DNA of 64,000 bases from positions 1 to 64,000 of IMG/VR virus record IMGVR_UViG_3300035670_000033, one strand, 5' to 3'. The stretch's first letter is position 1, and each line of letters begins with the position of its first letter. The notes beneath the pieces are model-generated. The model had not been told where the DNA came from and did no database searches. It saw only the letters and a program-made list of their open reading frames with translations. Source of the stretch: a virus. The translations under genes and the position numbers were made by a program. Positions 32,172-53,650 of the stretch are shown here, in pieces.

Positions 32172-32574
32172 CTAGGAACTCCTGTCGTGCGTCACGCTTC
32201 TCTGTCCGTTGTATGAAGCCTTCTATTTTGTCGGCGTCACGGAATATAAGATCTATACCGTTATATTTTTTTTGTTGCGGGTTGTCGCCCATATGGAATG
32301 GGGAGGATGCACAGCCGTCTATGGCGCGACAGGATGCTTCTATGCCGTAGTCGTGGATGGATGCGGCGATCTTGACTTTGCGGTCGTGATCTAGGACGGC
32401 ACGGGTGGAACCCATTGTCTTAACCCAATAGTCCCATACGATCTGTACCGCATCGTCGGAGATCCCTTTGGCTTTGGCGTTGCGTTGTTTGGTGGAGATC
32501 CGAGGTCGTTCCTGTTTAGGTTTATATGACTTGTTTACGCCACCGTTCGGATTGGGAAACATCTCTTCAACCAT
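32161..32574 (-). CDS. Putative replication initiator (replisome-organiser-like)
   Basis: VWDYW...R..KI...AIDG..SSPFHMG.N...Y..IDLIFRD..KIE motif of phage initiator C-terminal domains. Confidence 0.55.
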   Translation of the reverse strand: MVEEMFPNPNGGVNKSYKPKQERPRISTKQRNAKAKGISDDAVQIVWDYWVKTMGSTRAVLDHDRKVKIAASIHDYGIEASCRAIDGCASSPFHMGDNPQQKKYNGIDLIFRDADKIEGFIQRTEKRDARQEFLDEQ

Positions 32575-32899
32575 CAGACGAACTCTACACCCTTTTACTT
32601 AAAAGGTCAACACACGTTGCCAAAATCAATAACTATCTTTTCCCGGCCGGACCAGTTAGAGGAAGTTATATCAGTGGTATCAACGTTGATGAAAAACAAA
32701 AGGAACAAACACCAGTTAGTTAATAACTTTGGAGGGTTCGGGAACCTTTACCAAATCTTTTTTGGGGCGCGTGCAGCCGAAACAGGATCCGCGATTTTTG
32801 ACAATCGCAGATTAAGATTTGATTATTGATCGCGCGCGAAAGGTTGTATACGCCACCGTGCATCTTAGATGCTTATCTGCGCTTACTATTTTTTTCGTC

Positions 32900-33175
32900 G
32901 CAGTCCCGTGTGTGTGGTTGTAAAAGATAGCAGACCAACAGCCCCGCCGCACGCACGTTTCAAAAATAAACCACTAGTAACGTAATATTGTGTTCGCAAG
33001 TCCCGTCTACCCGCGGGTAACCACAACATGTTGTGGGTGCGGGATCGCGAAGCGGGGCTATCCCTAGAAATGTGCAGGCATGCAGGCGGGGCTATCAGGT
33101 GTTGATAGGGTGATAGTTATCGGCGGGGCTATGAAGACCCCCATCTGAAGGACTCGTCGTGGTAGCGGGGCTGGG
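32900..33175. other. Origin-like non-coding region with palindromes and 8-bp iteron-like repeats
   Basis: CCACAACATGTTGTGG palindrome at 33021-33036. AGYCCCG at 32902, 32940 and 32999 on its left; GCGGGGCT at 33052, 33086, 33123 and 33165 on its right. Confidence 0.5.
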
Positions 33176-33327
33176 CTGTGAACTTAACGTCGGGTTTAGT
33201 TGCACAGCCCGCCCGTTACTTATCTAGCAATCTTAGTTCAGGCTTTTTATAAGTTGGATGGTTACGCATTGAATGTGTGAGGTCGTTGTTTCCGCCACCG
33301 TTCAATTTGGATAACTTCTTTTTAGTT

Positions 33328-33720
33328 TTAGAACTCTTCTTCGGTGCCATCTTGATCCTCTTCTTTGATTGATTGTTCTAACGCCATCAGAATGGTGAAT
33401 GCTTCTGATCTTCGGATGATCGCGTTACTGGTCATGATCGGCCAGTCTTTGATTGGTGTTGCGAAACCTTCAAAGTGTTCTTGCATTCCTTCTTCTGTTC
33501 CACAGTCTGAACAGATCTCTACGGGTTTGTGTGCGTCTTGTCCTCGTGTGAGTCGTGAGATCGCCCCTATGTACTGTCCGTGATGCGCGTTTGATGGGAT
33601 TAGCCCCTCGCAACGCGGGCAGATGCCCATGTCTATTTGTTTTGAGTGGATTCTGTTCCAAGGTTTCATTTTGTTCTCGTTTCTTCTAGTGGTATATGTG
33701 GTTCTTTTTTGTTTTGCCAT
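33328..33720 (-). CDS. Zn-ribbon hypothetical protein
   Basis: CPRC...CSDC. Confidence 0.55.
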   Translation of the reverse strand: MAKQKRTTYTTRRNENKMKPWNRIHSKQIDMGICPRCEGLIPSNAHHGQYIGAISRLTRGQDAHKPVEICSDCGTEEGMQEHFEGFATPIKDWPIMTSNAIIRRSEAFTILMALEQSIKEEDQDGTEEEF

Positions 33721-33833
33721 CCGCAGATTTCTTCAAACCATTTGTCCATCCACGATGTCCGTGATGAATAGTTTACTTCTGTTATTTCCCATCCACAGTA
33801 TTTGCAGGTTCTCATGTTTGTATCCGCCACCGT

Positions 33834-35386
33834 TCAGTTTGGAATAGGGGTTTGTTCGTAAACCATGTATTCACCGTCGTTGTTGACTGCGATTCCTGTC
33901 ACCCAACTGTTGCGATGCTCTGATCCTGTCACACTGTACGGGTCGTCGCCGATCATGATGCGCGTTTTGTATACCGCGTTAGACATCGCCTCGTTCTCGT
34001 TTGGTGCTTCTACATCTGTTGTGACCATTGTTGTGACACGGTACTTTGCCATTACTTGTCCTCCATATATTTTTCTACTGCTTTGAGACCCGTGCTGATG
34101 AGAAGAGAGATCGGTAGGAACGCTGATGCCTGCTTACCGTAGGTGTCACCGTTCTTTTCCACTGACTCTGCGATCAGTCGTTCTATGACATCGCTGTTGA
34201 ATGCCACATAAACATCTTTGTCGCTGATCCCATACACCAACGGTTCTAGTTCGTCTTTCTCTGTGAACACTTCTGATGGTGCTGTAAGGAATGTGACAGT
34301 GGTTCCGTCTTCATGTTGCATTCGCATCATCACATCGTCGCTGTCTTCATCTAAAAATTCAAAATCGCTCATTTGTTTTCTTTCTGATGGCGTATACGCC
34401 ACCGTTCGGTTTGGATAAAGCCACTTCGTTTAGAAGTGGTAGTCCACGATCACGATCCACTGTGAGTCAGGGTCTTTTTCTAGTCGCTTGTTCAACCACT
34501 CAGGGTTGGGTGTGTATTCCACTGTGTCATAGAACATGGTGTCTGCTGAGTACTCTCTGTTGAGAACCTTGAATGCTCTTGTGACTCTGAAGACCGCGAG
34601 ACTTTCTTTCATGCGGTTATCTTTTTCTTCGTCTGTCATTTCTGCATACGGTTTCCCGTCGTAGTCTGCGAAGTCGTATTTACGGTTGGTGAGAATGTCT
34701 TTTAGAGACACATCTCCGTACTCGCTGACAACTTTGTCTATGGTTTCTTGTGTCCATCCGCACGCAACTTCTACGAGTTTCTTGAAACCCTCAGGGTCTT
34801 GTGTGTAGTTCGTTGCGACTTTCATGTCTTGGACACGATCGTCGTCCACGATTGAACACCAATCTGACCACTCTTGTGACTCTGCGAACTGTAGTGCTCT
34901 GCCTTTCGCGTCCACTTCGTCAAATGCTTCTACTGCTAAACGGTGATATGTGTGCATTTTGTTCTCCTTAGAATTGTCGTGAGTTCACAGGATCGCCCTG
35001 TGAGAATGTGAGTGCTGTGTAACCATCTTCGGACGGTGTATGAAACCCGTCTATGTTGTAATACCAACCGTCTAGGTCGCCTATGACGATCTGAGTGCTT
35101 TCGTCAAGACCTTCTAACGCCTTGATTAGTTGCCCGACGGTAAGAATGCCACCCGATGTTTCATTGAAGTCGTATGTTCCTAATCGCATTATGCAACCGC
35201 CTGTTCGGTGTCTATTTTTGTGCCGTACTGTTTTCCTAGTTTTATTGCGTCGCTGTCGTTACCGCCCTCTGCCCACTCTTGGTAGAGTGCGAGACCTGCT
35301 TCGTCAAGTGTTGAGACATCAACGATCACGCTGTGCCAAGTATTCGTAATTGTTCCGTCAAGGGTGTTGATTATCAACTTATCCAT
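33834..35386 (-). CDS. Run of five small hypothetical genes (33834..34052, 34052..34372, 34430..34957, 34968..35189, 35189..35386)
   Basis: Contiguous or coupled leftward ORFs, several with GGAG RBS; no family recognised. Confidence 0.6.
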
Positions 35387-36416: not shown

Positions 36417-36495
36417 TTTTTGCTCCTTGTTTAGTAGGTTTAGTTTCGGGTTTCCCCTTACCCATAATTATAGGTAAGGGGTGTAACACGGTTGT

Positions 36496-37113
36496 TTAGA
36501 CCGAAACGACGCTCAGTGCCTCTTTGCATTGGACTTCAATCGCTTCAAGTGTTTCTGTGACTTGCTCGTACATTGCGTCGTAGTCTTCGTCGTCTACGCC
36601 ACTCATGCTCGGGTATTCGCCCTCAATGTCTGCAACGATCTCGCCGTTGCGGAATGCGTAACCGCCACAGAACGCCATACCGCCCTCCTCGTAAGAGAGA
36701 ACGAAGTCAAGTGTTGGGAATTGCTTAGACACCCTGCGAATGCCCTCGCCGATCGGAGACCACGCTGACATGAAAGTCATGTTCAGTTCTGTTGGTGTGA
36801 TCGTTCCGAACACGCCATCAAAATCTGACCACTTAGAACCGTAGTTCGCACAATTCCAATCGTACCAATCTGCGTATCCGTACTTTGCTTTATTTGCTTT
36901 CTGCATTTCTTCCATCTGCTTTTGCTTTTCGGTTTCACCGAAAGAACCTTTTGGTGTTGCCGAAAGATCGGATGGTGTTGGTAACAGATTGTCAAGAATG
37001 CTGAACTCGTTATATGACTCACGATCGTCACCTTGAATGATCGCTTCATGGAAACGCTTGATTTCTTTTTCGTCACCTGAAACGGTGAGGTTGTTAGTGC
37101 AATAGTTTGGCAT
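36496..37113 (-). CDS. DUF1281/YubB-like protein
   Basis: MPNYCTNNLTVSG...WYDWNCANYGSKW...FMSAWSP...YEEGGMAFCG signature. Confidence 0.75.
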   Translation of the reverse strand: MPNYCTNNLTVSGDEKEIKRFHEAIIQGDDRESYNEFSILDNLLPTPSDLSATPKGSFGETEKQKQMEEMQKANKAKYGYADWYDWNCANYGSKWSDFDGVFGTITPTELNMTFMSAWSPIGEGIRRVSKQFPTLDFVLSYEEGGMAFCGGYAFRNGEIVADIEGEYPSMSGVDDEDYDAMYEQVTETLEAIEVQCKEALSVVSV

Positions 37114-37512
37114 TACTTCTCCTTGTTTAGTTAGGTTTATTTGCTTGCCCAATCAGTATGCCTCATGGGTGTAACACAGTTATTTTTAGTAGGGATTTTT
37201 TATTACTCTAACATTATATATAAGACAAAAACAAAAAGCAAGTATCGGATCAAAAAACTTGGAGCGATATTTAGAGCGATATTTAGTGCTAACCCGAGAT
37301 CAGATCACACACCCCAAAGCCCCCGATCGCTGTTGAGGTTTATATACGCCACCGTTCGGTTTAGATACAAGCAAACAACTCATGCTAAATAACAATCGTT
37401 GCAAACTAGACAGCCCCGCATCCCAACAGCCCACCCCGACAGCCCCGCCACTCGCGCGGAAGCGCGGGACTAATGCTCGCGAACAGTTGTTCGCTCAACT
37501 ACTATCGGGACT

Positions 37513-37899
37513 ATGACAATCTCCCGAACAGACAGATGGCAATATCGTTTCAATGCGCTCGTGCAATTCACCAACAGGACAGGTTCGTCGCTTGTTCCCG
37601 CAACACAAGTTGAGGTTTATGAGGGCAAGAATGTTGCGCTTGGTGCGTGGGTCGCATACAACCGTCAGCAATATCGTGCAGGAGAACTACCGATCGTGCG
37701 ACAACAAGCGTTAGAGCAACTTGCAGGTTGGCATTGGGAGAAGCAGAAACCTGGCAGACGCTACGACACGAAGCGAGACGCAGAGATCGCACAGCGTTAC
37801 AAGAGTGGCGAGCGTGTCGGACTGATCGCTGTTAGTTTCAATCTTTCACGGCAACGAGTTCATCAAATACTCAAGAAGGTTTCAACACCCAATGTCTGA
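37513..37899 (+). CDS. Helicase-associated (HA) domain plus sigma-4-like HTH protein
   Basis: WQYRFNAL.QF....G...VP......LGAWV...R..Y..G.L...R...LE.L..W (HA domain), then SFNLSRQRVHQI (HTH). Confidence 0.75.
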   Translation: MTISRTDRWQYRFNALVQFTNRTGSSLVPATQVEVYEGKNVALGAWVAYNRQQYRAGELPIVRQQALEQLAGWHWEKQKPGRRYDTKRDAEIAQRYKSGERVGLIAVSFNLSRQRVHQILKKVSTPNV

Positions 37900-38242
37900 T
37901 TTCAGTAACCATGACAAGCGTGATGCTTGGAAAAAGATGAGTGAGTGGTCTCACAGCATTCCTGATGATGAACTTGACAGTCTGTTTGTTGATGAAGATT
38001 GGGAAGACGAGTGGGCTAATCTTCCGCCCGTGTTGCGTGAAACACGCAGACAGGTATTCGGAAAGTTTATATTCGCTCTGTTTGGTTTATCTGTCGGCGT
38101 TGCTTTTGTGTCGTTCTTGTTGTATCAACTTGTTCAAGCGTTGGGTGTCACCGATCTAACTTTTCGTGAGTCTGTGATCGTCACATTGTGTGTTGCGTTC
38201 ATTCGTTACATTGACGCAGGAGTAATGAAACAGATCCGATAA
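37892..38242 (+). CDS. Two-TM membrane protein
   Basis: Two hydrophobic helices; coupled to the HA/HTH gene. Confidence 0.6.
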   Translation: MSDFSNHDKRDAWKKMSEWSHSIPDDELDSLFVDEDWEDEWANLPPVLRETRRQVFGKFIFALFGLSVGVAFVSFLLYQLVQALGVTDLTFRESVIVTLCVAFIRYIDAGVMKQIR

Positions 38243-38371
38243 ACACATCAGGACGCACTCTTGCGAGTGCGCCCTGAGCGGAGAAGCGAAAGGTGAAAGG
38301 AGAAGTCCTTTCGTTCCTCTAGCGGTAAAGAATAACATATGAGTTATATGTCATTCTGAAGCGATCAGGTT

Positions 38372-39868
38372 TTACCCCAATCGCTTTCCGTTTAGTCGTG
38401 TATATGTTTCCTGCCACTTTCTTGGATACCAACGGTTCGGTTTCTTTCCGACCGAAAGTTGCTTCAACAGTGCAAGTCCGTCATTCACATTGTGTGCCAT
38501 AAACACTTTGTGCTTCAAGACTTCTTTTATGCAGTCCATTGCCAAGATGTCGTGGTATCCACCGTATTGACCGCCTGTGCCAAGACCGTGAACCTGACCG
38601 TCTGTAATCCACACGATCGGAGTTGATGAACGCTTGCGTTGTTTGATCGCCCAACGAATTGCTTCGCCGTCTACGCCGTTGCCACCATTCCGTTCAGGAA
38701 GTTTGTCTACCATTTTCCCATCTTTTGCAAGAATGAGAAGGTTCGGTTTCACATTGTTTCGGTCTGCTGAATAAACCGCAACAGTGCAACCTGGACTTGC
38801 TTCCGTGATGTCAAGAATGTTTTTGTTGTTGAGAGACATTGAACCTGAACCGTCAATCAAGACGATACCGCCGTTGCCTTTCTTGTATCGGTCAAACACT
38901 CGCTTCTCGGGGTCTGCAAGTGCGTTACCAATTCTGCGAGGGTTACGACCCATGTTGCTTGCAACACGCTTGCGACCGAGACCGCCATGCGCTTTGCGAG
39001 TGAGTGGGAGATTACCAACAATAAGTTTTCCCCAAGTCGGTACTGCACCGCTACCTCGTTGTGAAGGTTCAGTCGGTTTTACTTTCTTTGGGTCTGCTTT
39101 CGGTTTCTGTGGTTTATCTGTTGCACCGTTGCCGTTCTTGGTTTCTTTTTCTGCGTTGCCTTCTTGCTTCGCTTCGTTCTCTTGCTTCGCTTCGGTTTCG
39201 CCGTCCTCGTTTTCGTTCTCATCAACAGGTGGGTTTGCCAAACGATCAATCCACTCTGCAATTCGCTCTGTGTGTGCGAACCCCATTGGTGCGAGACCTG
39301 TGCGCTCATCTATTTCTGTTGAACCGAGTGTGCCTGTCTTGTGTGCTTTGACGAACTCTTTCTCCACTGCTTTCACAATGTCTCGGAGTGTTGTTCCCCA
39401 TGCACGATTTACTCTGCGTACACCTGTGAGGAAGTCTTTGCCACCACCACAAACCGAGTAACCGACTGCTGTATAAACCGCACTCGCCCAATCGCCTTGC
39501 TCTGCGACACGCATTCCTGTAGTGAGTTCGCTTCCGTCTGCCAACAGATCAACATCAAACCCTGCTTTCTTGATAAGAAAGTTCACACGAACTTCCTCAA
39601 CAACGATCAGTGCATTCTCTGTTGCGATCTTGCGTTCAATCCACTTCGGGAAGTCGTCCGCAGGTGAGAACCGTGCGTGTGCCATTTCATGCGCACGGAT
39701 TACACGATCAACTTGTTCGTCACCAACAGGAACGACCATGTGCTTTGTAACAACATTGGTCATTGGTTTGCCACGAACAGGTGCGCAAGTATCTACTTGC
39801 CATGCGCCCGAGTCTTTATCTTTGCGCCCCAACATTTCGGGGAGTGGTCTGATTTCTACTTTTTGCAT
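38372..39868 (-). CDS. VWA (MIDAS) domain protein, CobT/MoxR-partner type
   Basis: VLIDGSGSM (DxSxS), WITDG, N-terminal HEMAH metallopeptidase-like motif, acidic linker. Confidence 0.8.
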   Translation of the reverse strand: MQKVEIRPLPEMLGRKDKDSGAWQVDTCAPVRGKPMTNVVTKHMVVPVGDEQVDRVIRAHEMAHARFSPADDFPKWIERKIATENALIVVEEVRVNFLIKKAGFDVDLLADGSELTTGMRVAEQGDWASAVYTAVGYSVCGGGKDFLTGVRRVNRAWGTTLRDIVKAVEKEFVKAHKTGTLGSTEIDERTGLAPMGFAHTERIAEWIDRLANPPVDENENEDGETEAKQENEAKQEGNAEKETKNGNGATDKPQKPKADPKKVKPTEPSQRGSGAVPTWGKLIVGNLPLTRKAHGGLGRKRVASNMGRNPRRIGNALADPEKRVFDRYKKGNGGIVLIDGSGSMSLNNKNILDITEASPGCTVAVYSADRNNVKPNLLILAKDGKMVDKLPERNGGNGVDGEAIRWAIKQRKRSSTPIVWITDGQVHGLGTGGQYGGYHDILAMDCIKEVLKHKVFMAHNVNDGLALLKQLSVGKKPNRWYPRKWQETYTRLNGKRLG

Positions 39869-39956
39869 ATTTCCAACTTTCGTTTCTAGGTTTATGTCTC
39901 TTGCTTAGGGAGGCTTGCTTACACCCCCACCTTACGGCAGGGGTGTAACGAGGTTA

Positions 39957-40700
39957 TTAGACCGCAACCTTGTTGATTGCGATTGCGTCTAGGACGCTTT
40001 CTGCCTGCTTGCCGAACACCATTCGTGCGCTGTCTGCGTCACCGAGTGTCTTTCGCAGTTGGTCAAACGCATAGAAGGTGCGGAGTGAGATCCTGCGCTC
40101 GCCTGCGTCTGCCATACGAACCGCATACTCACGGAGATCTGCCGACAACTTCTTGAGTGCGTCAGGGTGAGGTTGGTTGATACGGATTGCGACAGGGAAA
40201 CGATCTTTCAACGCTTCAGGAAGTTCCTCCATTGTTTCAATGTTGGTGGTCATGACAACGCTGAACCCGTCCTTTGGTGTGATCGTCCGATTGTTTTCAG
40301 GACTTTCCCACTTCGCACTTTCAGGTGAGTCAGTGAATGCGAGGAGTGTTGCGAACACATCTGCGCCTGCTTTGTCAATCTCGTCAATTACGAGACGACC
40401 GCCACGCAAACCGTCACCTTTCCACGCTGACACTGCTTTACCGTCTACCCAAGACCAACCGCCTTCGCCGTTCATCTTGTAGTGACCTTCAACTTGCGCA
40501 TTGGACATATCCTCTGTGCAGATAAGTCGGAATGCACCTGCTGTGACATCACCGTAGTTGAGACCTGCGAAAGTCTTTCCTGTTCCTGGGGGACCGAATA
40601 AGATCAAACGGTCTACGCCTGCTTTGAGTGCGTTCTCAACATCTTTCCAACACTGTGGGAGATCGTTGCGCACCTTTCCTTCTAGTACTTGCTGTTCCAT
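39957..40700 (-). CDS. MoxR/CbbQ-type AAA+ ATPase
   Basis: GPPGTGKT (Walker A), VIDEID (Walker B), MTTN (sensor I), ALKDRF (Arg finger). Confidence 0.88.
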   Translation of the reverse strand: MEQQVLEGKVRNDLPQCWKDVENALKAGVDRLILFGPPGTGKTFAGLNYGDVTAGAFRLICTEDMSNAQVEGHYKMNGEGGWSWVDGKAVSAWKGDGLRGGRLVIDEIDKAGADVFATLLAFTDSPESAKWESPENNRTITPKDGFSVVMTTNIETMEELPEALKDRFPVAIRINQPHPDALKKLSADLREYAVRMADAGERRISLRTFYAFDQLRKTLGDADSARMVFGKQAESVLDAIAINKVAV

Positions 40701-40802
40701 TACTTTCCTTCTTTCTCCGAAGTTCGTTCGGACTAGTTTGCTTATTTCTAGGTTTATTTCCTTACACCCCCAACATTACATTGGGGGTGTAACAGGGTTT
40801 AG

Positions 40803-41210
40803 TTACGCTACTTGCGCTTCTGCTGTTGCCTTGCTGTCGGACTTTGCGCCCTTGAGTTCGGTAACACGGATTTGCTCGTATGCCGTGATCGTGGTTACTG
40901 CGTCTGCGACATCTGCTTTGATTACGCCGACTTCCACTGCTGACTTGAACTTCTTACCGTCCACTGCGGACTTGGTAACAGTCTTGAACACCTTGTCGGA
41001 AACGAGATCCTTCAAGATTTCAACGCTGTATGAAGGACGCTCGCCTTTTACGACTGCAACCTTTACACCGTCTACGACTGCGTAGTCCACGCCTTCTTTT
41101 GCGAGTTCCAACTTGAAACTTGCTTCTGCTTGTGCAAGTTCTTGCTGTGCGATCTCTAATGCTTCACGCTTCGCAAGTACTGCCTTTGCTGTTGATGTGG
41201 TTAGTGCCAT
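40803..41210 (-). CDS. Hypothetical helical protein
   Basis: Own motif-C promoter and AAGGAG RBS. Confidence 0.65.
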   Translation of the reverse strand: MALTTSTAKAVLAKREALEIAQQELAQAEASFKLELAKEGVDYAVVDGVKVAVVKGERPSYSVEILKDLVSDKVFKTVTKSAVDGKKFKSAVEVGVIKADVADAVTTITAYEQIRVTELKGAKSDSKATAEAQVA

Positions 41211-41308
41211 TTGATTTTCTCCTTATGTCTAGGTTTATTTGCTTCTTGCCACCACTGTATATCAGGGGTGTAACACGGTTATTCGTACTGACTTTCTATC
41301 TATGATAG

Positions 41309-41339
41309 ATAGTCTAGTACCTGTTTTTGGACTTGTCAA
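41309..41339 (-). promoter_or_regulatory. Canonical sigma-A promoter (TTGACA-N17-TAGACT)
   Basis: Reverse complement reads TTGACAagtccaaaaacaggtacTAGACT. Confidence 0.6.
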
Positions 41340-41342
41340 GTC

Positions 41343-43465
41343 TTATGCGAGAAACCTCGCAATCCCTGCGTCCGTAAGGTCGTCCCCGATCTGACGCTTT
41401 GCGTCTAAGTCATTCAGGTACTCGCTGACGATCTCGCAGATTTCATCACATTGGTTCTGAATCGCTTCGTGACGCTCACGCTCGTCTGCGTCCTCTAAAG
41501 GGTTCATCACGACTGCGTACGATCTGAACGCCTGTGCGATCAACGCTTGCTCAATGCGCTCTAGTTGTGCTTCTGTGAATGTTGTGATTTTCATTTCTTA
41601 CTCCTTGTTTGTTGGTGTACCTGTAATACGCACGGTGACACGGAATGTGTGACAATCTTTTTTTGGACAGAGTCCAAAAGAGGTTGTGAATAACTCGTTG
41701 AGGTTTATATACGCCACCGTTCAGGTTGGGAGATGACAGTTCGGATCGCCGATCTCCGTGCGCCTGCGCCTGAGAGCCCCGCGTTGTTTACATCTTCCCG
41801 CAAGCCCCGCACCGCATCTTCGGGCGCGGGACTAGGCAAAAATAAAGGGGAGGCTTTCGCCCCCCCCCTTGGTTAGTCCCAAGTGATCAACCCGTTTTCT
41901 GCGATGTAGGTTGGGAGTCCCATACTTTTCAGTTCCTCGTATGTGAAAGGAACTTCTTGGTTCTTGTTGATGTGATCAACATATCCCCTGTTTCTGAGGG
42001 CTTCGTCTGTCATTGCTTCTCCTATGTGTCTAGTAGTTGTATCTCTTATACGCAATATTAGAGCAAGGGTGTGACACAGATAAATAGAAAACTTTCACGG
42101 CCGTGTGACATCACGCTTTATGTGACCGTGTGCGTTATATGTATGTAGGCAAAACCGCCTACCAAAGCGTTAGGAGAAGTAGTTGGAAATCAACTATGAA
42201 GCAATAAAAGAAATGACCCGTGCGTTGAAGCAAGAAATTGCAAGAAACGGGATCAACGAAAACAATTCGCAGTGGGTTCACGAAATGCGAGTTGCGATTG
42301 AACTTCGTGAAAGCGGTGTCTACTAGAACCGCCAACAAGACCCCAACTCGGAAACGGGTTGGGGTTCTTTTTTGCCATAGCCCCGCGATCTGATGCGGTT
42401 GCCGCACAGCCCCGACATCCGATGCGCGACGCGGGACTGAGACAAAAGAAAACCCGCAGAAGATGGTTGGTCTCCTGCGGGTTCTTGATTTAGTTGGTTG
42501 TTTCGCGGACTATCTGAAAACGATCGCCTTCTTCGGTAATCATTCCGAGAGTGCTTCCGTTGTCCCATTTGATGTGAACCGTGCCAAGTCCGTCAATGTG
42601 GGTTACGAGACCTTCGTCGCCCCACTTCAACCTCGTGTACGGGTCGCCTGACCGCATAAACATTACTCGCTTACCGACATAACTTTCTTTGTCTGACATT
42701 AGTAGACCCCGAAAGATATTCCGTCTGATGTCATTCCGAACAACGCACCTGCGTCGTTCCCTTCTGTATCCATTGACGGGTAGAGGATTGTTCCGCTAGA
42801 GAGAACGAGAACCATAGGGATTTCTCGTTTGCGCCAACCTTCTTTGTTCATTTCCGCTTTTGTCATTGGACGAATGTCAATGATTGTTGATCCGATCATT
42901 GAGTCGTCTACGGTTTCTGCTTCGTATGTACTGCTCATGTGCTTTCTCCTTTGTTTAGGTTTATATGAAGCGTCTCGCTGTTACACGGACGCTTTTAGTG
43001 GTGACTTGATGTCTGCTAGTTCACGCTCTAACTCTGCACCTTCGCAGTTGTTCATAAGGTCAATCAAATTATCTAACCATGTTGCAACGGACGCAGGAAG
43101 TGGTGTCGTGCTGAGATAGTTGGTGTACTTGTTGAGTACGATGTCAATCTCGGTAACGAGTCCTGCTCCTTCAACATTGTTTGTGATGTCAAGGATTTCT
43201 GTGATTAGGTTGATGTAACTTTGCTTTTCCATTTTTATTTCCTCTCGTTTTGTTTTACAAATCTGACACACTCTTTTTTCGTGGACGCATTGAACGCCTG
43301 ATTGCCTGTTGCGATCTCAATAACAACCCACCAATCGGTTTTGGTTTCGTGAAACCAAACATCATTGAACCCTCTTTGCATAAACCGTTGGTGAAACCTT
43401 TCGCATTCAGGGTGTTCGCACGGTGACTCTTGGATCTCTTTTTCTATCCTGTAAGTGCTGTTCAT
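41343..43465 (-). CDS. Small leftward hypothetical genes (41343..41594, 41873..42013, 42490..42699, 42699..42938, 42981..43232, 43235..43465)
   Basis: Each has an RBS and/or a motif-C promoter; no family recognised. Confidence 0.6.
41838..41870 (-). terminator. Intrinsic terminator
   Basis: GC stem with GAAA loop followed by TTTATTTTT on the minus strand, just after 41873..42013. Confidence 0.75.
42183..42326 (+). CDS. 47-aa rightward miniprotein
   Basis: AGGAG RBS, TTG start, LEINYEAIKEMTRALKQEIARNG...GVY*; followed by a terminator. Confidence 0.55.
   Translation: MEINYEAIKEMTRALKQEIARNGINENNSQWVHEMRVAIELRESGVY
42338..42373 (+). terminator. Intrinsic terminator
   Basis: ACCCCAAC..GAAA..GTTGGGGT stem followed by TCTTTTTT. 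Confidence 0.8.
42444..42483 (-). terminator. Intrinsic terminator
   Basis: AACCCGCAG/CTGCGGGTT stem with a minus-strand U-tract, after 42490..42699. Confidence 0.65.
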
Positions 43466-43654
43466 TTCTATCTCCTTGTCTAGGTCTATATAGATATGTT
43501 ACCCAAGCGGTGTAGCAGGGTTATTCGCCCTGCCACCTGAACCCACGACACTCTCGCTTACTGCGCTTCTTGCGCTTGTCTGCGACACGCTGTGCCTTCA
43601 GGATATTGCGATCTGCAAACGCCTGACGATCTGCCTCACTCCATTGCTTGCTCA

Positions 43655-44137
43655 TTAGAACCTTCTCCTATTCTTTGTCCATTCGTGACAACTATGTTTT
43701 GCTTGCTCATCTACTTGCTCTTGTGACATTCCTGCCTTGATCAACGGACGGTATCCGCATGAGTTGCACGAAACGCCGAGGTACTCGGTGACACCTTGTG
43801 CGATCTGATATGCGTGAACGGTCGTGTTGCCGTGTGTGCGCTCATTCAGATAAACCGTGATGAACACTTCGCAATTCGCACAACCGATGATCTTGACATC
43901 TTTGCCGTCTGTTGGTGCTTGCTTTGGAAAGAAATCAAACTTGAAGTGTTTGCAGGTTTCGCACTTGTCATCAAGTTTGCGAACCTTTGCCACTTCTACT
44001 GCACCTTCGGTTACTGCTTTCCAATGTGCAGGAAGTATCCCTTTCTTTTGTGCTTGCTCAACGAGGTGGTTGCGAACCGCCCATTGTGCGTAAGGCTTGG
44101 CTACTTTTGTTGCCTTTGCCTTTTTGATCTTTGCCAT
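43655..44137 (-). CDS. Cys-rich (Zn-binding) hypothetical protein
   Basis: CETC, CANC and CNSC pairs; ATG 44137 after an AAGGAG RBS. Confidence 0.6.
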   Translation of the reverse strand: MAKIKKAKATKVAKPYAQWAVRNHLVEQAQKKGILPAHWKAVTEGAVEVAKVRKLDDKCETCKHFKFDFFPKQAPTDGKDVKIIGCANCEVFITVYLNERTHGNTTVHAYQIAQGVTEYLGVSCNSCGYRPLIKAGMSQEQVDEQAKHSCHEWTKNRRRF

Positions 44138-44272
44138 TTCTAGTACTCCTTGTTTAGGTTTATCTAACTCGCTAATTACACTATATACGCAGGGTGTCAC
44201 ATAGTGTGTGATCTTTTTAGATCTAAATAATAAATATACTTCTAATATATCAGGGGCATAATATCCCCAACC

Positions 44273-44293
44273 TTGTCCACAGCCTGTGGATAA
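44273..44293. promoter_or_regulatory. Inverted DnaA-box pair TTGTCCACA-gcc-TGTGGATAA
   Basis: Both 9-mers match TTWTNCACA or the actinobacterial TTGTCCACA; preceded by an AT-rich tract at about 44210-44265. Confidence 0.6.
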
Positions 44294-44736
44294 CTAGATC
44301 ACGCAACTCCATTTAGCACTAAGTCAAACGATCAGCAGGCTATATACGCCACCGTTCAAGTTGGGTGATGTCTTGATGTCTTGATGTCGGATCGCCCGAT
44401 CCCATAGCCCCGCGCCATCCGTCGCACGGCGGGGCTAACAAGTCTCGCATCCGTTCGCGGGGCTGTCGCCGTCGGATCTTCGGTTTGTTGGGATAGTGTT
44501 GGGATATGGCTATGCCCTTCAGTCCCAAGCATTCCACTAACTTGCAGATCGGCGAAGTTATTGACGCGCTCGCGCAAACTGAGCCCGATCTATTTGGTGA
44601 AGGTAACGCGACACTAATGCCCGTGCAATACTCTGATCGTCTCGCGTTAGTGATATGCGATCGTTCGCTAGGGGAGTCCATAAACGCTAATAGCCCGCCT
44701 GCCTAACGGCGGACGGGCTACGACACTGCGGACTAT

Positions 44737-46112
44737 TTACTTATTGCGTTGCGACTCTGCCCATAGGTGACGGAATACGAACGCAGGTATCGCGTTGCCG
44801 TCATCCGTGAAGTAGTAACCATTGTCAAGTGTTGAATGATCGGGGATAGTGACGATCCGTCTATTGCTAACGCGACCACGATACCAATATCCAATGATAA
44901 AGATATTGTGATCGCTTGTCGTCTCCCATTGCCAACGCGAAGTGCCGACATATCCCTTATAGGTGAGTTGCGTTGTCATTACTCAACCGCCTGAATCATC
45001 GCGAAGATAGACGGAGACGCCGTAGTGATTCCGTGCGCGTAATCCGTGACTAGGTGCAACATATAATTGTCGCGTTCGTCCTGATCCCATGTCTCTGCCC
45101 AAGTGGTGCGATCGTTGTCGTCCCAATTCATTGTTGAGTTAATGAATATCTCTGCCTTCGTTGGTGGAGTTGAGTTGAGTGTGTATCTCATAATTTGCCC
45201 TTCGTGTAGTAGTTGTGTTGGTAATCGGCTTGCGCCTTGTGCCTAGTTGGAATTGAATCCCACGCCGAACGCGCTAGGCGACTCACCTAAGTGAGTGTGT
45301 TAGATCGCGACCGCTTCGCTGTAACGAAGTGTGCCATCGCCACCCATTGCGATCTCGGTCGCGCGTAACCATAGGTCGCGCACGACTTCATTACCGCGTG
45401 CCCACGAAGTTAAACATCCGAGAACTTCAGTCTCAAACTCCGCGAGTGCTTTATCCGAGTATCGCTTAACCGACTTACGGATAAGAGTTGCGAACGGATA
45501 ATTTACGCGATCGTAAACACCAACCAATTCACTTGTCTGATCGTAGTGTCGCAACGCGATGGACGACATGAGTTGCTTATTATCCGCATCGTGCCAAATT
45601 GTGATACGCACTAAAGTGCCCATTGGTCTGCCATCCACTTCAACCGAGTCACAAGTCGGACTCTTAAGTGTGTAGGTGATCTCGCGATCTTTAACCTTGC
45701 GTGTCGCTTGCGCTAACACTGTATTGTGACTAACAATTAAATTACTCATTATTTATCTCCCGTGTCTAGTTGGTTTATGTTTATTACTTACTATCTATAT
45801 TACGCAACGGGTGTTGCATAGTGTGACATTGCCTGATTAGTCATGATCTGCGAGTTTGACCCAATGCATACCGACCCAACCATCAGGTGTGCGCATTGAG
45901 TTCAGGTGTCCGCCTTCAATGATTGAACGGATAAGACTGAACAATTCCCGCGACAAGTCGTCTCGCGTAATATCCATTGCGTCTACCCATTCATTGTCGT
46001 AACGATTCTGCGTAAGATCGTCAATTACTGATCCAACGATCTCCATGCCGATCGCGCCGATACCGAGATAATTCTCTGCCAATACTTCGCTTAGTGATTC
46101 ATCTAGTGCCAT
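44737..46112 (-). CDS. Small leftward hypothetical genes (44737..44979, 44979..45191, 45300..45749, 45837..46112)
   Basis: ORFs with RBS; two have motif-C promoters. Confidence 0.55.
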
Positions 46113-46696
46113 GTCTATTCCTTGTCTAGTAAGTGTAAGCGTTATTGCTTACTCCCCAATAATACGCAATGGGTGTTGCAGAGTGTGACATTGCCATTCT
46201 GCAATATCGCGTATCCGCTATATCCGTGATCCGATATCTACGATCCGATATACGGTTTATATGCGCTACCGTTCAGGTTGGGGACTTGGATCGGCGATCC
46301 GCCCGCCCGCGTGCGCCCGCGAGCCCCGCGCGCTAAATGGGGGCGCGGGACTGTCAAGTTTTTTGGGGCAAACAGTAGCGTTTGCAGTGTCGCCTTACCC
46401 TCCTGTGACGCATATGAGCCCCGCGTGTTTACACGGGATGCGGGGCTGTGGGCAGGGGAGCCAGAGCCGCGGGTTGGGGAAGCCGCTGAGCGGCTTCGCC
46501 GTCGGTATCTGTATCTGAACTGAGACAATTACGAGAACCTGCCGCGCACTCAAACAATCGTTGAACACTATTCTGAACGCGTTACCGACATTGCAGTGGT
46601 TAGAACTCGCGTGAGAAGTAGCGTCCATGATGTGTGAGTGGCACGGTGCGCTCAACCTAGATAGCCGTGAGACGCACTACAAGCCCCCTAGAAACG

Positions 46697-46726
46697 CAAA
46701 AGCCCCCACCCCGAAGGGTGAGGGCT
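46697..46726 (-). terminator. Intrinsic terminator (UUCG tetraloop)
   Basis: Minus strand AGCCCTCACCC-TTCG-GGGTGGGGGCT-TTTG, after the DUF6011-like gene. Confidence 0.75.
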
Positions 46727-46747
46727 CGCGCCTGCGTTAGGAACTAA

Positions 46748-47236
46748 CTAGATGTTCCTTGCGCACACGGGTCCGATACCCCGTGCTACCGAGTTTGGGT
46801 CGGAAAGTTCCGCACCACACACGCAACAGATACCGAACTCATGCCCTGCCTCCTGCGCCTGTGCGAGGGTCATGCGATCCTCTGCGGAGAGACGGAACAA
46901 CCCGCCACGCTCGTAGGTGAAACGCTCTGCCTTGACAGGTGCGAGAGGGTTGTAACGCATTGCGTACAGGTTGCCTGACTGCCGTGAACGCTTTACACGG
47001 AACACAACGCCGTCCTTGCGGTACATACCGATCTCGGTAACAGGGTTTGCCTGTACGACCCGTGCAGGACGATTCATGTTGCGCTCAACCGCCTGCAACT
47101 GCTTGTCGGATAGACGACCGAAACGATCGTAACCATTGAGGACGCTCGTAAAGAATGCATTGCCAAGTGCGTTGTCACGCAGGAACTGAACTACACGCTC
47201 CTCACGGGTGAGTGGTGGAAGTGTCTGAACTGACAT
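46748..47236 (-). CDS. DUF6011-like Zn-finger protein
   Basis: C-terminal CCVCGAELSDPNSVARGIGPVCA. Confidence 0.75.
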   Translation of the reverse strand: MSVQTLPPLTREERVVQFLRDNALGNAFFTSVLNGYDRFGRLSDKQLQAVERNMNRPARVVQANPVTEIGMYRKDGVVFRVKRSRQSGNLYAMRYNPLAPVKAERFTYERGGLFRLSAEDRMTLAQAQEAGHEFGICCVCGAELSDPNSVARGIGPVCARNI

Positions 47237-47804
47237 AGGTAACTCGCTTTCGTTAGTAGGTTTATTTGCTTACCCTGAATATACGCACAGGGTGTAACAG
47301 AGTGTGCGATACCCGATCGGGGGCGCAGATCGCAGGCACGGCGTTCACCGCAACCTGACAAACCGATTCCGTTGCATGGCTGAGACTTATATCCGCCACC
47401 GTTCAAGTTGGGGACTCAGATCCGCGATCCGCCTCCGCGCTACGCGCCCGCCCGCCCCCACAGCCCCGCGAACTACGCGGTCACGCGGGACTATCAGCAT
47501 CAGCAGAAAGAAGAAGACAAGCCCAGTTGGGAACGTTCCGGCTGACGTCCCGGCGAACGTCATCAAAAACGTTACTTTTTACGCGTTTTGAAAAACATCA
47601 ACTTTTGCTAATTTTTCTGGTTTTTTGAAAGCCTTATACCATAAGGGTTTTACGGGGTGACTTATTGAGGTTTGTAGAAGAAACGAATAAACTGTCAGAA
47701 AGAACAACTTTTTGGGACTCCGGCTGCCGGGCTGGTCTTCAGCCAGTTCCGAAGATGGGCTGATAGCCCCGCGTTATTGTCTGCGCGGAAGTTTGACGCG
47801 GGAC

Positions 47805-50006
47805 TTAGAAGAGAGTTGGCGCATCGTCAAATGCGTTGCGGGTTTCGGTGCAGATTTTGTGTGCGTAACCGAGTGGTGCTGAAGGGTTCCGAGGCGTCCC
47901 TAAGTATCTGCCGTCTTTGTGTTCTAACCAAGCGACAACCTTGACGCAGTATGCCGTGTTCAGGGTGTCTAGCCCTGTGTTGCAGATGGAGCAGGTGACT
48001 TTCATTTATGCGGTTGCTTCTGCCTTTAGTGGTGCGACGATCACGGAAAGTAGATCTTCTACAGGGAACTGTAGGTCACTATGCGACCTGATGTCAAGGA
48101 GTAGATCAACCATTTCCGATGATGATACGAGTTCACGACCCGAGATCTGTTTGATCGCGCTGTCAATGAGTTCGGTGATGGTGCTAATTTTTTGTTCTGT
48201 TTCCAAGAGACTTCTTCTTTCTAGGTGCAATAGTTGGTAGATAGTTTATCGCATAATCGTAAGTATGACGCAGACAAACGATGTGGTCGTTGTACACCGA
48301 GAGTGCTGTAGAGCACCCTTCTAGTGCACAACGACGAACGCCGTTGCCATCTGTTTTGGGTTTGAGAACGGTGTTACTCTCCAAGTTTCGCCCACTCTTC
48401 GTCGCCGATGAGTTCTGATGCTTGCAGTATTGCTTCCTCTATATCAAAGTGCACGCAGTTCAACCAACCCGCTTCACCAACTGTGTCGTCGTCTGCGTAC
48501 AGATCAAACCATGCGTTGTTGTCAAACTCAATGCGTTCTTCGTCTATTGCTTTCTGCAACTGCTCATCTGTTTCAATGCCTACTTCTGCGAGACGGTCGG
48601 AGTATCTGATCACCTGATAGTTCGCATTGTCAATGCGCGCTTCTTTGCTGTCCCAAACATGGAGACGCATTTCGCCATCGCAGTAAACGCTGATGGTGCG
48701 GTCTTTGTAGGTAACCCGTGCCACGAGTTGGTGTGCATTTGCGTCCCAAACATAGAACGCAGGGTCTTTGCAGAACTCTCGCTCATGCGGTGACTGTTCT
48801 CGGGTGATAATTAGGTCTTGCATTACTTCTCCTTGTTTCTAGTAGTTGTACCAAGAGTAATACGAGGGTGTTGTACGGTTACGCCTTTCCTAACAACGCC
48901 AATGCTTCATCTATTTCTATGGTGGTCTTGATGGAGTGATCGCCGTCGTATGCAACGGTGACATAGTTTGCGCCAACGGACGGGTTCTCTGCGAGATCGC
49001 AAATAGACCCGTACGCTTGCGCAACTGCGTCTAAATGGTTGTCTGCTTCATAGACCATTGACCAAGTGACGATGTACTGCATTAGACGGACAGACTTTCC
49101 TGCCATGAAAACATTGGTGAAACACCGAACTCGTCTTTTACGGAACGGGTGCTGACTTCAACATCAACTTTGTATTGCTCTAACGATGCGAGGATATCTG
49201 CAAGTTCCGCCTTGTCGGTTGCGATGCGGTAACGCAACTCGTGCATACGGGTATTTAGGGTCTCAAATGTTTGCTTTTTGTTACGGAGTTTCATTACTTA
49301 TCTGCCTTTCGGTCTGCTTGTGGGTCTCTTATTTCATACTGACGACCTTCTCGTTTTACGAAGATGTCAGGACGATCTTGAACGATCTTGCGGACGGTTG
49401 CTTCTGATATGTCGCCAATTTCCGCAAGTTCTTTTACTGTCACCAAGTCAAAGACATGGTTTTTGCACCAAGACAAGATGTCTTGCTTGCCGTCTTGTGC
49501 CGTGCGCCAACCTTCACTTGGTTGTGCCTGTGCCAAGAGTTCTGCCTTGATGTTGTTTGGTACGAGATCACGGACACGCTTAGGTACTTGCGCAACCCAA
49601 ACAGGTTTCCCATAGGTGTTGATCGCTTCAGTAACTTCGCGTATCGCGTCGTCTAGTTGTGTGTCTACTTCGTTGCTCATAGTGTCTACTATACGCAACG
49701 GGTGTGACAAAGTGTGTGATCCCATTAGAACGGTTCTGCTGTTCGCATGGACTCAGGTACTACAAGTGCGCTTTGTGCTTCGTTCAGTACCGTCATTGTC
49801 TGAGAAATGATGTTGCTGGTTTTTAGTACTGCGCCCTTGAACACCGCTGACTGTTCTTGTGTGCCAACTCGTGATAGTTCTTGTTCAAGAACTTCGTAAA
49901 TGCTGTGTATCGCTTTCTCAATGCGACTCAAACTTGCTGAGTCCGCATCAAAGATCTGTGCGAGTGTTTGTGTTCTTTCCATCTGCTTTTTATATACCCC
50001 TTTCAA
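47805..50006 (-). CDS. Small leftward hypothetical genes (47805..48005, 48006..48230, 48374..48823, 48879..49082, 49082..49294, 49294..49680, 49725..50006)
   Basis: Contiguous ORFs; 49294..49680 has a C-terminal HTH-like segment (TVKELAEIGDISEATVRK). Confidence 0.55.
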
Positions 50007-50271
50007 GGTCTAGGTTTATCTAACAGTATCATTATATACACGGACTTGTCAAATAGCAACCTCGCCACAAACAAATGTTCGCCCACCCCTCCCAAAACTT
50101 TTATATAAGCCACCGTTCGGTTTGGGGTAATTCTTCCCCCTCCTGCTGTTGGGGCAGATCTCGCCCGCCTCCCTAGTCCCGTCGCGGATTTCTTCCGCGG
50201 GGCTGTAAAACTTTGACTTGCAAATCTCAGATGACTCGGATAAACTAAACAGGTACTAGAAATGGGGTGAA

Positions 50272-51715: not shown

Positions 51716-53650
51716 GTGTCAGAGAAATACCTCTTCCTAGCCGACGACCATTTAGTCTCAACCTCGCCATACGACCGAGAAGAAGTTGAACAAATCAAAG
51801 CCATCAACGGCGCAAAGTGGGACAAAGTAGCCAAAGCGTGGCGTATCCCAATGTCTTCAGTTGTTGAAGCGCGGGACTTCGGAATGCGCAACGGGTTCAC
51901 CATAGACCCTCAGGTTCTGACATTTGATCTTCCTGAGAAACTCAACCCAATCTTCGGTGTCACCCTAGAAAAAGACTTTATTTATATGTCCTTTGCTTAC
52001 GACCCTGTGAAAGTCAAAGCAGTCAAGGAGATTCCGAGCGTAACTTGGCACGCAAAAACCAAAGCGTGGCGTGCACCCGTAGCAAGTATCGCCGAATGCA
52101 TCAGTTGGGCAGAGAAGTTCAACCAACAAGTCCCAAACAACCTGAGTGATTTGGCTTCCAAACTCAAAGAAACACACGACGCTTCCGTGCAACAGTCCCG
52201 ATCCGTAGATGCGGATCTAGAAGTCGCGGGACTCCCACTTCTTCCATACCAGCGAGCCGGAGTGAAATACGCGTCAGCAGCCAAAAGATGCTTTATTGCT
52301 GATGACATGGGACTCGGGAAAACCTTGCAGGCGATTGCAACTTTGGAATATGTTTGGGATTCCTACCCTGCGATTGTTGTTTGCCCACCCAACTTGGTGT
52401 TGAATTGGCAGAAAGAATACGCCAAATGGCTACCTGAAAAGAAAGTCGTAACGGTTATAGACCGCAAAACCTTCCCCGAACATAAAGACTTTGATGTTCT
52501 TGTTATTGGATACTCTAACATTTCTCATTGGCAAAAGCAAATCACCAACTTCAGGTCACTCGTGCTTGATGAGTCACATTACGTTAAATCTCCAACGTCT
52601 CAGAGAACCAAAGCCGCCATCAAGATCGCCAGAACAGTCCCGAGTGACGGAATCGTGTTGTGTCTCACCGGAACACCTGTGACAAACAGACCAGCAGAGT
52701 ACGCATCTCAGTTAGACGTTCTGGGGAAACTAAACACGTTTGGTGGACTTTGGGGTTTTTACCGAAGATATTGCGGTGCTTTCAGAGACAGGTTTGGTCA
52801 ATGGAACATCAACGGCAACTCAAACTTAGATGAACTCAACGAAAGATTACGCGGAAACTGTTATATACGAAGAACCAAAGAGCAGGTCCTCAAAGATCTT
52901 CCTCCCGTGCGGCACGCAAACATCGTCGTGTCTGGTAGCCCCGCGCAGATGGCGGAGTACCGTAAAGCAGAGCGGGACATCGTGGAATATTTGGTTGAAC
53001 GCGCCAAGCAGATCGCGTTGGAAATCGGTAAATCGCCTGGGTCCGCAGCCGTCGTCGCACGCATAAAAGCCGAATCTAATGAACATTTAGTTCGTATTTC
53101 TGTGCTCAGGAAGTTGGCGGCAAGGGCAAAGATGGAATCAGTTATTGAGTTTATTGAATCTCACAGAGATGCTGGTTTGAAAGTGGTTGTTGCGGCTCAC
53201 CACCGAGAGATTGTTGATGAATTGGCAAACAAGTTTGGGGGGCTGAAGATCCAAGGAGGGATGCTGGTCTCAGATGTGGAAGATGCGAAGTCCCGTTTCC
53301 AAGAACAGCCGACGGAAGACGCACCCGTAATTGTTTTGTCCATCCAAGCCGCCAAAACCGGGCACACCCTGACGGCTGCCCAAGATGTTCTTTTTGTTGA
53401 ACTTCCTTGGACACCCGCAGATGTTGACCAAACCTATAGTCGTTGCCATCGTTTGGGACAGCAGGGTTCTGTGACCGCAACCTATTTGTTGTGTGAAGGA
53501 ACTGTTGATGAGGAGATTTACAACCTGATCAGCCGCAAACGTGGAGTCGTTGATGCGGCGACTGATGGCGGGGCTGTGGAGCGAAAGCAGGAGTCGGTTG
53601 GTCAGATGATTGTTGGGATGTTTGCGAAGAGGGGACTTGATGGCATATAG
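51716..53650 (+). CDS. SNF2-family helicase/annealing translocase
   Basis: ADDMGLGKT, LDESH, LTGTP, RRTK and SRCHRLGQ helicase motifs. Confidence 0.93.
   Translation: MSEKYLFLADDHLVSTSPYDREEVEQIKAINGAKWDKVAKAWRIPMSSVVEARDFGMRNGFTIDPQVLTFDLPEKLNPIFGVTLEKDFIYMSFAYDPVKVKAVKEIPSVTWHAKTKAWRAPVASIAECISWAEKFNQQVPNNLSDLASKLKETHDASVQQSRSVDADLEVAGLPLLPYQRAGVKYASAAKRCFIADDMGLGKTLQAIATLEYVWDSYPAIVVCPPNLVLNWQKEYAKWLPEKKVVTVIDRKTFPEHKDFDVLVIGYSNISHWQKQITNFRSLVLDESHYVKSPTSQRTKAAIKIARTVPSDGIVLCLTGTPVTNRPAEYASQLDVLGKLNTFGGLWGFYRRYCGAFRDRFGQWNINGNSNLDELNERLRGNCYIRRTKEQVLKDLPPVRHANIVVSGSPAQMAEYRKAERDIVEYLVERAKQIALEIGKSPGSAAVVARIKAESNEHLVRISVLRKLAARAKMESVIEFIESHRDAGLKVVVAAHHREIVDELANKFGGLKIQGGMLVSDVEDAKSRFQEQPTEDAPVIVLSIQAAKTGHTLTAAQDVLFVELPWTPADVDQTYSRCHRLGQQGSVTATYLLCEGTVDEEIYNLISRKRGVVDAATDGGAVERKQESVGQMIVGMFAKRGLDGI

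Follow-up and report, generated by a model that had tools for sequence, protein, structure and literature searches.

Repeated non-coding headers, possibly control modules, in the early region of an uncultured freshwater phage

What is the role of a composite element that recurs ahead of one group of genes after another in a phage? In large uncultured phages, most genes of the early region are uncharacterised. The element considered here, called a header, is found in IMG/VR record IMGVR_UViG_3300035670_000033, a 138,071-bp record of an uncultured freshwater phage with a completeness rated at 97%. The window, that is, the whole stretch of DNA analysed, comprises its first 64 kb. Genes run leftward from 32 to 50.2 kb, and in this block six headers precede them, each with an inverted repeat (motif B) and an asymmetric box (motif A). 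A sequence-only reading had described the headers as heads of gene cassettes. Its modular early region and its regulatory view of the headers are borne out in part; its methylation switch, its cassette-exchange joints and its single obligatory composite have not. The leading explanation, still a tentative one, is that headers are boundary or control modules composed of putative binding sites for one or more phage DNA-binding proteins.

The six headers lie at 37.4, 41.8, 44.4, 46.3, 47.4 and 50.15 kb. Each shows the same order along transcription: B, A, a promoter-like motif and then genes. The coordinates of this order were verified, and repeat finding and pattern scans recovered the elements where they had first been placed. 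The header elements are not due to chance. Motif letters are given along transcription, which here means the minus strand. Motif B, AGYCCCGY-N15-RCGGGRCT, is 30-31 nt long and is an inverted pair of the 7-mer AGYCCCG. Motif A is a 28-bp asymmetric box, tcCAAmyt-GAACGGTGGCG-kATAyAA, with the core GAACGGTGGCG. From the end of B to the GAACGG of A there are 48-84 nt at the six headers. The distance from A to the nearest octamer follows no fixed phasing and varies from 40 to 80 nt.

The first header in the direction of transcription, at 50.15 kb, sits where the leftward and the rightward block diverge. Its B is at 50175-50204 and its A box at 50100-50126 (minus strand, first G of the core at 50118). 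A sigma-70-like promoter, TTGACA-N16/17, follows at 50025-50059 (minus), then a ATAAACCTA leader at 50011-50019 and the first gene at 49725-49982. At 47.4 kb, B (47462-47492) is followed by a GATC doublet (47419-47429), the A box (47386-47412, minus, first G 47404), a C-type promoter-like motif (47278-47314, minus), the leader (47257-47265) and a DUF6011 gene (46748-47236). The header at 46.3 kb has B at 46322-46352, a second B at 46417-46447, a GATC doublet at 46289-46299 and an A box of the variant form GAACGGTAGCG at 46256-46282 (minus, first G 46274).

At 44.4 kb, B (44406-44436) is accompanied by an extra half-site (44458-44464). The GATC doublet (44390-44401) and the A box (44339-44365, minus, first G 44357) come next. 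Between A and the C-type promoter (44180-44221) there is an inverted pair of DnaA boxes, TTATCCACA / TTGTCCACA, at 44273-44293. The header at 41.8 kb is directly preceded by an intrinsic terminator (41844-41869, minus), as had been noted; its stem carries a T-run and ends 10 nt before B. Here B lies at 41803-41833, an extra half-site at 41775-41781, the GATC doublet at 41744-41754 and the A box at 41704-41730 (minus, first G 41722), with a DnaA-like box after it at 41685-41693. The last header, at 37.4 kb, consists of B (37441-37471) with flanking half-sites (37412-37418 and 37506-37512) and an A box (37339-37365, minus, first G 37357).

No close relative of this phage was found among cultured phages by near-identity and protein searches. 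The best match of its helicase in cultured phages, in Arthrobacter phages, is at about 35% identity, and a 498-aa protein of the early block has zero matches among them. Relatives were found by an IMG/VR scan with the A core and this 498-aa protein, which gave 15 related contigs, with protein identities of 69-95%, and three more at 33%. All 15 contigs of the closer group retain A and B in unchanged order. A further relative, L160, was found via a small regulator-like protein of the block (the HA+HTH protein described below), to which its own copy is 60% identical. Headers are kept in 16 of 16 related contigs, even where protein identity falls to 54-69%. That their spacers might be coding was ruled out, because indels among orthologues are not multiples of three. 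Non-coding and conserved, the headers bear out the proposal of regulatory-type modules. The most conserved pair of genes in the early block, an AAA_5 (MoxR-like) ATPase of 247 aa followed by the 498-aa protein, which has no Pfam family, lies at 38372-40700 (minus) and served as the anchor for relatives.

A promoter-like motif is found 50-170 nt after A at every header. It is of the TTGACA type at 50.05 kb and of the C type, xTGTTACACCC-N-TAnAnT, at the other five. The claim that a promoter and a leader follow A holds for the promoter at six of six headers, but ATAAACCTA stands between promoter and ribosome-binding site at only four of six. This word occurs 16 times in the window against 0.35 expected. 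Because it lies at a fixed distance after TTGACA-N17-TATAAT promoters, it is a 5' leader element. Two further promoter-like classes precede leaders and genes, neither with a -35 of the sigma-70 type. Class C1, AATAACCGTGTTACACCCC-N5-TAnAnT, is found at 36478-36496, 37166-37184, 39940-39958, 40784-40802, 41265-41283 and 43514-43532. Class C2, CACACTnTGnnACACCC-nTGCG-TATAnT, is found at 44180-44221, 45797-45833, 46159-46195, 47278-47314 and 49688-49724. In the relative G002 (IMGVR_UViG_3300036770_005816, also labelled L135, at 69% identity) the header promoters are plain TTGACT-N17-TATTAT, about 100 nt after a variant of A.

The GATC doublets, GATC-N3/4-GATC, lie exactly where they had been reported, between B and A at 41744, 44390, 46289 and 47419. 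At these four headers they sit within GGATCG/CGATCC-type palindromes. The window holds six doublets against 1.3 expected, and none of 100 shuffles reaches six. A methylation-sensitive switch had been suggested for them. This idea is not borne out: the doublets are confined to this genome and three relatives, are missing from four of seven relatives that retain B and A, and a search of the genome for a Dam-type methylase found none. DnaA boxes follow A at two of the six headers and are conserved in relatives. At header 41.8 most relatives have a cluster of two or three DnaA boxes directly after A; orthologues of this header have differing terminators before B and a second half-site 28-29 nt after B.

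A and B also occur apart. Among 166 distinct contexts of A, 121 have no octamer within 150 nt, which speaks against A and B as one obligatory composite. B is found without A at 42408-42438, 46417-46447 and 47765-47805. Five A boxes without B lie within 32530-34415 (minus), with the first G at 32548, 32861, 33303, 33835 and 34407, at gene junctions or inside open reading frames (ORFs). Three of the five overlap gene ends or coding sequence. The copy at 33835 spans the stop codon of one gene and directly adjoins the ATG of the next. The copy at 32548 falls within a conserved coding sequence, which has a leaderless TTGACC-N17-TAGAGT promoter of its own. Two others lie 15-24 nt before starts, one of them that of a conserved 17-codon ORF. 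Header A boxes lie 110-226 nt ahead of the next start; only some of the A-only copies are 2-24 nt before an ATG.

Two observations were made close to these copies. The micro-ORF of about 17 codons (MRNHPT.KKP..., 33216-33285, minus) starts 15 nt past the A at 33303 and is conserved at the protein level in the relative L130. The gene at 32161-32574 has a -10-like hexamer exactly 7 nt before its ATG (region 32582-32610), so that a leaderless transcript is probable.

The half-site of B has a distribution of its own. AGYCCCG occurs 49 times at 32,902-61,416 and not once in the other 109 kb, where Markov models predict about 8 sites, as against 3-4 inside. The hexamer GYCCCG occurs 52 times inside this domain (32902-61422) and once outside, while AA-, AC- and AT-YCCCG occur 21, 14 and 27 times in the rest of the genome. 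The 7-mer is equally confined in three large relatives (45 of 45 sites in G001, 46 of 46 in G003 and 51 of 51 in G002). The relatives at 33% have it at background numbers only. Beyond the headers, this is the most interesting result, and an unusual one: a single domain of the genome is marked by a family of sites that is kept out of all other parts. In G002, every site reads AGTCCCG and never AGCCCCG.

The sites are arranged differently in the two halves of the domain. In the leftward block they are intergenic pairs or nested sets in the order forward-forward-reverse-reverse. In the rightward module, which starts at 50.2 kb and contains genes for a SNF2-type helicase (51716-53650), a DUF932 protein and SSB, they are mostly single and lie within these ORFs, on either strand and in each of the three frames. 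In G002, at 70.7% nucleotide identity, four of the seven helicase sites keep their exact place (P=0.006). One helicase site is lost in this comparison, and a new site lies 47 nt away in its stead. Single sites within the replication genes recur about every 350 bp; spacings of 280-450 bp number 13 against 3.6 expected and 10 against 2.9 expected (p<=2e-4), and in the G002 helicase they are 355, 359, 348 and 352 bp. At the left edge of the domain there is a non-coding array of seven sites, four direct and three inverted (32902-33172). Such an array is the outermost and largest cluster in all four large genomes.

Does B act as an RNA hairpin or as a pair of sites? Its pairing is limited to the outer 8 bp of each arm, and the Y/R positions of the two arms vary independently. 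An extended hairpin was ruled out, as the inner 15 nt do not pair in register. A solitary B (42408-42438) lies between convergent terminators at 42449-42485 (minus) and 42339-42366 (plus), and the other copies come after terminators; because of these positions B is probably poorly transcribed. In the L125/129/130 lineage the arms are altered to AGCCCCGT...ACGGGGCT. B is thus best read not primarily as an RNA hairpin but as a putative head-to-head pair of AGYCCCG(C) sites. Taken together, the confinement of AGYCCCG, its presence in all frames and on both strands, its conservation, its spacing, the arrays and the solitary B point to selection at the level of DNA. They indicate a dispersed putative protein-binding site that is selected against outside the domain. 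An antisense ORF of 47 aa with its own terminator (42183-42366, plus) converges on the leftward terminator at 42449-42485, with the solitary B between them.

These results suggest how a header might work. Lying between early transcription units and upstream of the unit's own promoter, it would serve as a non-coding boundary or control module, assembled from sites for one or more sequence-specific DNA-binding proteins encoded by the phage. B would be a pair drawn from the network of about 49 sites that marks a 30-kb early and replication domain and is counter-selected elsewhere. A would resemble a stoperator or operator, at which a bound protein may time, insulate or shut off transcription entering or starting at the unit. 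From the motifs, their distribution, their conservation, their separability and the selection on the DNA we infer that a protein binds, which protein this could be, and that transcription would be affected.

A candidate binder of A or B is encoded beside header 37.4. Antisense genes are few in the block, and this one (37513-37899, plus) specifies a protein of 128 aa. Its start lies next to a half-site and 42 nt from B. The protein has an HA domain (PF03457, E=6e-14) and a C-terminal helix-turn-helix (HTH) with the invariant helix LSRQRVHQI; the AlphaFold model has a mean pLDDT of 81. This HA+HTH gene stands at the same place beside the header in 16 of 16 motif-bearing relatives and was not seen at the loci of three distant relatives without the motifs. 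A search for distant homologues, in which motif and helix might covary, returned the same clade and one 60% relative, with the same helix and the same cores. The gene is probably transcribed without a leader (TACTAT, 7 nt, ATG; 37513-37535). An ORF of 116 aa with two hydrophobic helices (37892-38242) lies downstream and is co-transcribed with it.

Several points weigh against this explanation. A roadblock upstream of a unit's own promoter would affect read-through only. No integrase was found in the genome and lysogeny is not indicated, unlike in the phages that carry stoperators. The GCGTATAT of A resembles the -10 region of C2-type motifs, so that A may be a non-canonical promoter. The HA+HTH protein is a candidate whose link to A or B is drawn from adjacency and co-occurrence; Foldseek gives it weak local HTH matches only (E>0.5), to resolvase, KorA and LuxR-type proteins, and the half-site by its start codon is degenerate in three relatives. 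RNA runs from river and wastewater gave only short contigs in gene interiors, with no cover of headers and no 5' ends. Finally, neither the spacing of about 350 bp nor the avoidance of sites outside the domain is accounted for by simple operator function.

A broader reading takes the sites as a network. AGYCCCG may be the recognition site of the HA+HTH protein or of a virion protein, in a network that would organise the 30-kb domain as a whole; this is possible, though on the unlikely side. Paired sites at unit boundaries, single sites about every 350 bp within replication genes and a spacing near the optimum for DNA looping would fit such a role, as would the position of the largest array at the domain edge, the strict absence of the site from the other 80% of the genome and the scarcity of TTAA and CCAG in this domain. 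The network would serve staged entry, membrane tethering, compaction or the timed silencing of early and replication genes. If true, it would be a cis-acting "macrodomain" marking of a kind not described for phages.

The explanation that competes best with a control module treats the header as a terminator/promoter cassette like the PeSL of T4-like phages. A would then be a phage-specific promoter of middle or late genes, with a phage factor replacing -35 recognition, and B an upstream hairpin or a site for an activator, so that tandem promoters belonging to different temporal classes would be present in each cassette. PeSL and PmSL provide a precedent (PMC4122927). All eleven copies of A, which lie within 32.5-50.1 kb of the 138-kb genome, are on the minus strand, co-oriented with the genes, and end in the AT-rich kATAyAA. 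Relatives agree, with two exceptions among about 100 copies. A logo of 86 distinct instances from relatives has 28 informative positions, including an invariant 11-nt core, and an abrupt stop of information after them; a long, near-invariant box is typical of phage-specific promoters. The element GCGTATAT is common to A and the C2-type motifs, and A-only copies lie 2-24 nt before the starts of small genes that have no other promoter nearby.

The details of A argue otherwise. In the lineages of G002 and L160 the box reads GACGGTGGCGGAAAGC: its AT-rich 3' part is replaced by GGAAAGC and the core is unchanged, so that this part fits a -10 element poorly. The last -10 position is never T in any copy of A. 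Another promoter lies downstream of A at every header. B is 48-84 nt away, has no T-run, and is preceded by the true terminators. No phage RNA polymerase or sigma factor was found by PF00940 (for which the control was uninformative), PF04542, the DxDGD motif or PHROG scans of large ORFs; an ORF of 1546 aa examined in this search is an FN3-type structural protein. The geometries of sigma-70, sigma-54 and extracytoplasmic function (ECF) sigma factors showed no fit to A on inspection. A comparison of A with the ops element of RfaH, suggested by CGGTAGCG at 46274, was dropped because no promoter lies between the terminators and A. Since the sigma geometry does not fit, the AT-rich part is not kept, a separate promoter motif lies downstream and no phage polymerase or sigma factor was found, a protein-binding role for A, stoperator- or operator-like, is ranked above a promoter role as most likely, and the cassette of PeSL type is unlikely.

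Could the domain instead be the part of the genome that enters first? The site network would then mark a first-entering or specially handled domain, and the headers and the seven-site array would take part in staged entry, tethering or domain silencing, as in T5. Over the same stretch TTAA is almost absent (26 observed against 155 expected), and CCAG/CTGG (32 against 156) and AATT are also scarce. From 33000 to 63000 of the window there are 0-2 TTAA per 3 kb, as against about 10 elsewhere, and GATC is 1.7-fold enriched, often as CGATCG. The injection stop signal of T5 (iss) has repeats, palindromes and eight DnaA boxes (10.1101/866236). Here, DnaA boxes after A are conserved at two headers, the edge of the domain carries the largest array in each of the four large genomes, and a small membrane-type ORF accompanies the HA+HTH gene. 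But the domain is internal as the record stands, and its 30 kb and roughly 60 genes are far above any known first-step segment. There are six headers instead of one stop site, and at the level of the single header no evidence was found. Staged entry is an improbable explanation of the headers.

Two observations concern the same words. The bin at 45-48 kb departs from the purge of 33000-63000 and may be recently acquired. AGCT and TCGA have zero occurrences in the whole 138-kb genome, there are 11 copies of GGCC, and ACGT and CCGG reach 0.19-0.25 of their expected numbers; restriction sites are strongly avoided throughout the genome.

The headers had also been proposed as joints at which cassettes are exchanged. 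Such joints would move cassettes either by homologous recombination, as proposed for PeSL, or site-specifically, as with the attC sites of integrons. The early block does prove modular: it is a leftward block of small, mostly unknown genes and is highly mosaic, as seen against seven compared relatives, with head, tail, primase, ribonucleotide reductase and methyltransferase genes located outside it. Some breaks of homology against the closest relative fall exactly where a motif ends (B at 47459 and 41834, A at 37343), and contigs of a wastewater relative connect 46353, 47388 and 47471 to other places. All seven B+A junctions carry breakpoints, with a mean of 3.7 partner genomes against 2.2 at ordinary junctions. 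Ordinary junctions, however, carry breakpoints in 166 of 210 cases (79%), although their gaps are six times shorter than those at B+A junctions. Because of this the single gene appears to be the unit of exchange, and breakpoints show no clear preference for headers. An alignment necessarily ends at the edge of a conserved motif that is flanked by unrelated DNA. In every relative, headers 41.8 and 37.4 stay in place as individual neighbouring genes are replaced. No PF00589 match, and so no tyrosine integrase, was found in the genome, where controls matched. The cassettes themselves, said to hold 1-5 genes, hold 1-9, with internal promoters and terminators; these counts are approximate, as the gene caller is crude and some genes are missed or truncated. 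Exchange joints are a highly improbable account of the headers.

Equally improbable is a role in RNA, in which B and A would resemble the boxB and boxA of nut sites or form a processing site, or a role as multiple origins of replication. B can form an 8-bp GC stem whose position 8/24 covaries (C-G, T-A or T-G, never C-A), and the A-only copies are certainly transcribed; but half-sites are also found alone, on either strand, in direct arrays and within ORFs, B comes after terminators, and Rfam on 30-52 kb gives nothing other than one sub-threshold RsmY match within a gene. As for origins, some headers combine DnaA boxes and GATC clusters with a promoter and an AT-rich stretch, but the DnaA boxes are at two of six headers only and the GATC doublets are lineage-specific.

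The control module built of protein-binding sites is the explanation that we carry forward. Sequence alone reveals a conserved cis-acting grammar in a clade of freshwater and wastewater phages, made up of A boxes, B pairs, a common leader and no fewer than three promoter-like classes, and a small candidate regulator is at hand for testing. The AGYCCCG network suggests that a phage can mark and handle a large domain of its genome as a unit. If confirmed, this would be relevant to how a genome enters in stages, how early genes are shut off and how DNA is exposed to host restriction, and the site and its binder would be portable parts.

Among known systems, the stoperators of Cluster A mycobacteriophages are a close parallel to A. 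In these temperate phages a monomeric immunity repressor with two domains recognises upwards of 20 asymmetric sites, which are oriented along transcription (PMC9283540). Stoperators of the L5 gp71 type and A share many asymmetric copies, an orientation tied to transcription and positions in promoter regions and short gene junctions. The binder of stoperators is a two-domain HTH protein, and the candidate here is a two-domain HA+HTH protein. Stoperators are genome-wide, whereas the copies of A are limited to 18 kb. Header copies of A precede the unit promoters, no integrase or sign of lysogeny was found, and sequence and protein family are unrelated.

In Cluster K phages, the SAS is a 13-bp asymmetric repeat that includes the Shine-Dalgarno sequence and lies 3-8 bp before start codons; about half of the copies are preceded by the ESAS, an abutting imperfect inverted repeat with a variable spacer (PMC3203893). 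Like A, these repeats occur in 11-19 asymmetric copies of one orientation, limited to the non-structural part of the genome. Six of the eleven A boxes have B, with its 8-bp arms and variable 15-nt spacer, upstream in the manner of an ESAS, and a seventh (32861) has the octamer array. The distances differ: header A boxes are more than 100 nt from starts, and B does not abut A. The half-site of B is also dispersed alone, and the sequences are unrelated.

The PeSL of T4-like phages is a stem-loop directly upstream of a sigma-70 promoter, a Shine-Dalgarno sequence and a start codon (PMC2839356, PMC4122927). PeSL, PmSL and headers are all repeated composite intergenic modules in hyperplastic early regions, beside gene replacements. 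The anatomy of the headers is different, with B 150-300 nt before the start and with an A box and a spacer of 50-170 nt before the promoter-like motif. A and B stand between true terminators and promoters, each of which is an element of its own, and breakpoints are not specific to headers.

The injection stop region of T5 resembles the headers in being untranslated and in its repeats, inverted repeats, palindromes, DnaA boxes and DNA purged of restriction sites (10.1101/866236). In T5 there is a single locus at the terminal repeat with eight ordered DnaA boxes, whereas here there are six headers and a boundary array, with DnaA boxes at two headers. Integron cassette arrays depend on the tyrosine recombinase IntI and on an imperfect inverted-repeat attC at each cassette end. 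The present genome gives no PF00589 match, and the half-sites of B also occur singly inside genes.

Short protein-binding sites that are confined to one domain are represented by matS, the site of MatP in the Ter macrodomain of E. coli, and sites dispersed both singly and in pairs by the C1 operators of phage P1. AGYCCCG is like the former in its confinement and like the latter in its dispersal. We know of no phage case in which ORF-internal sites at a spacing of about 350 bp are combined with full avoidance in the remaining 80% of the genome. Since each of these families matches the headers in part and none in full, the headers are classed as a new variant of the composite regulatory repeats of phages.

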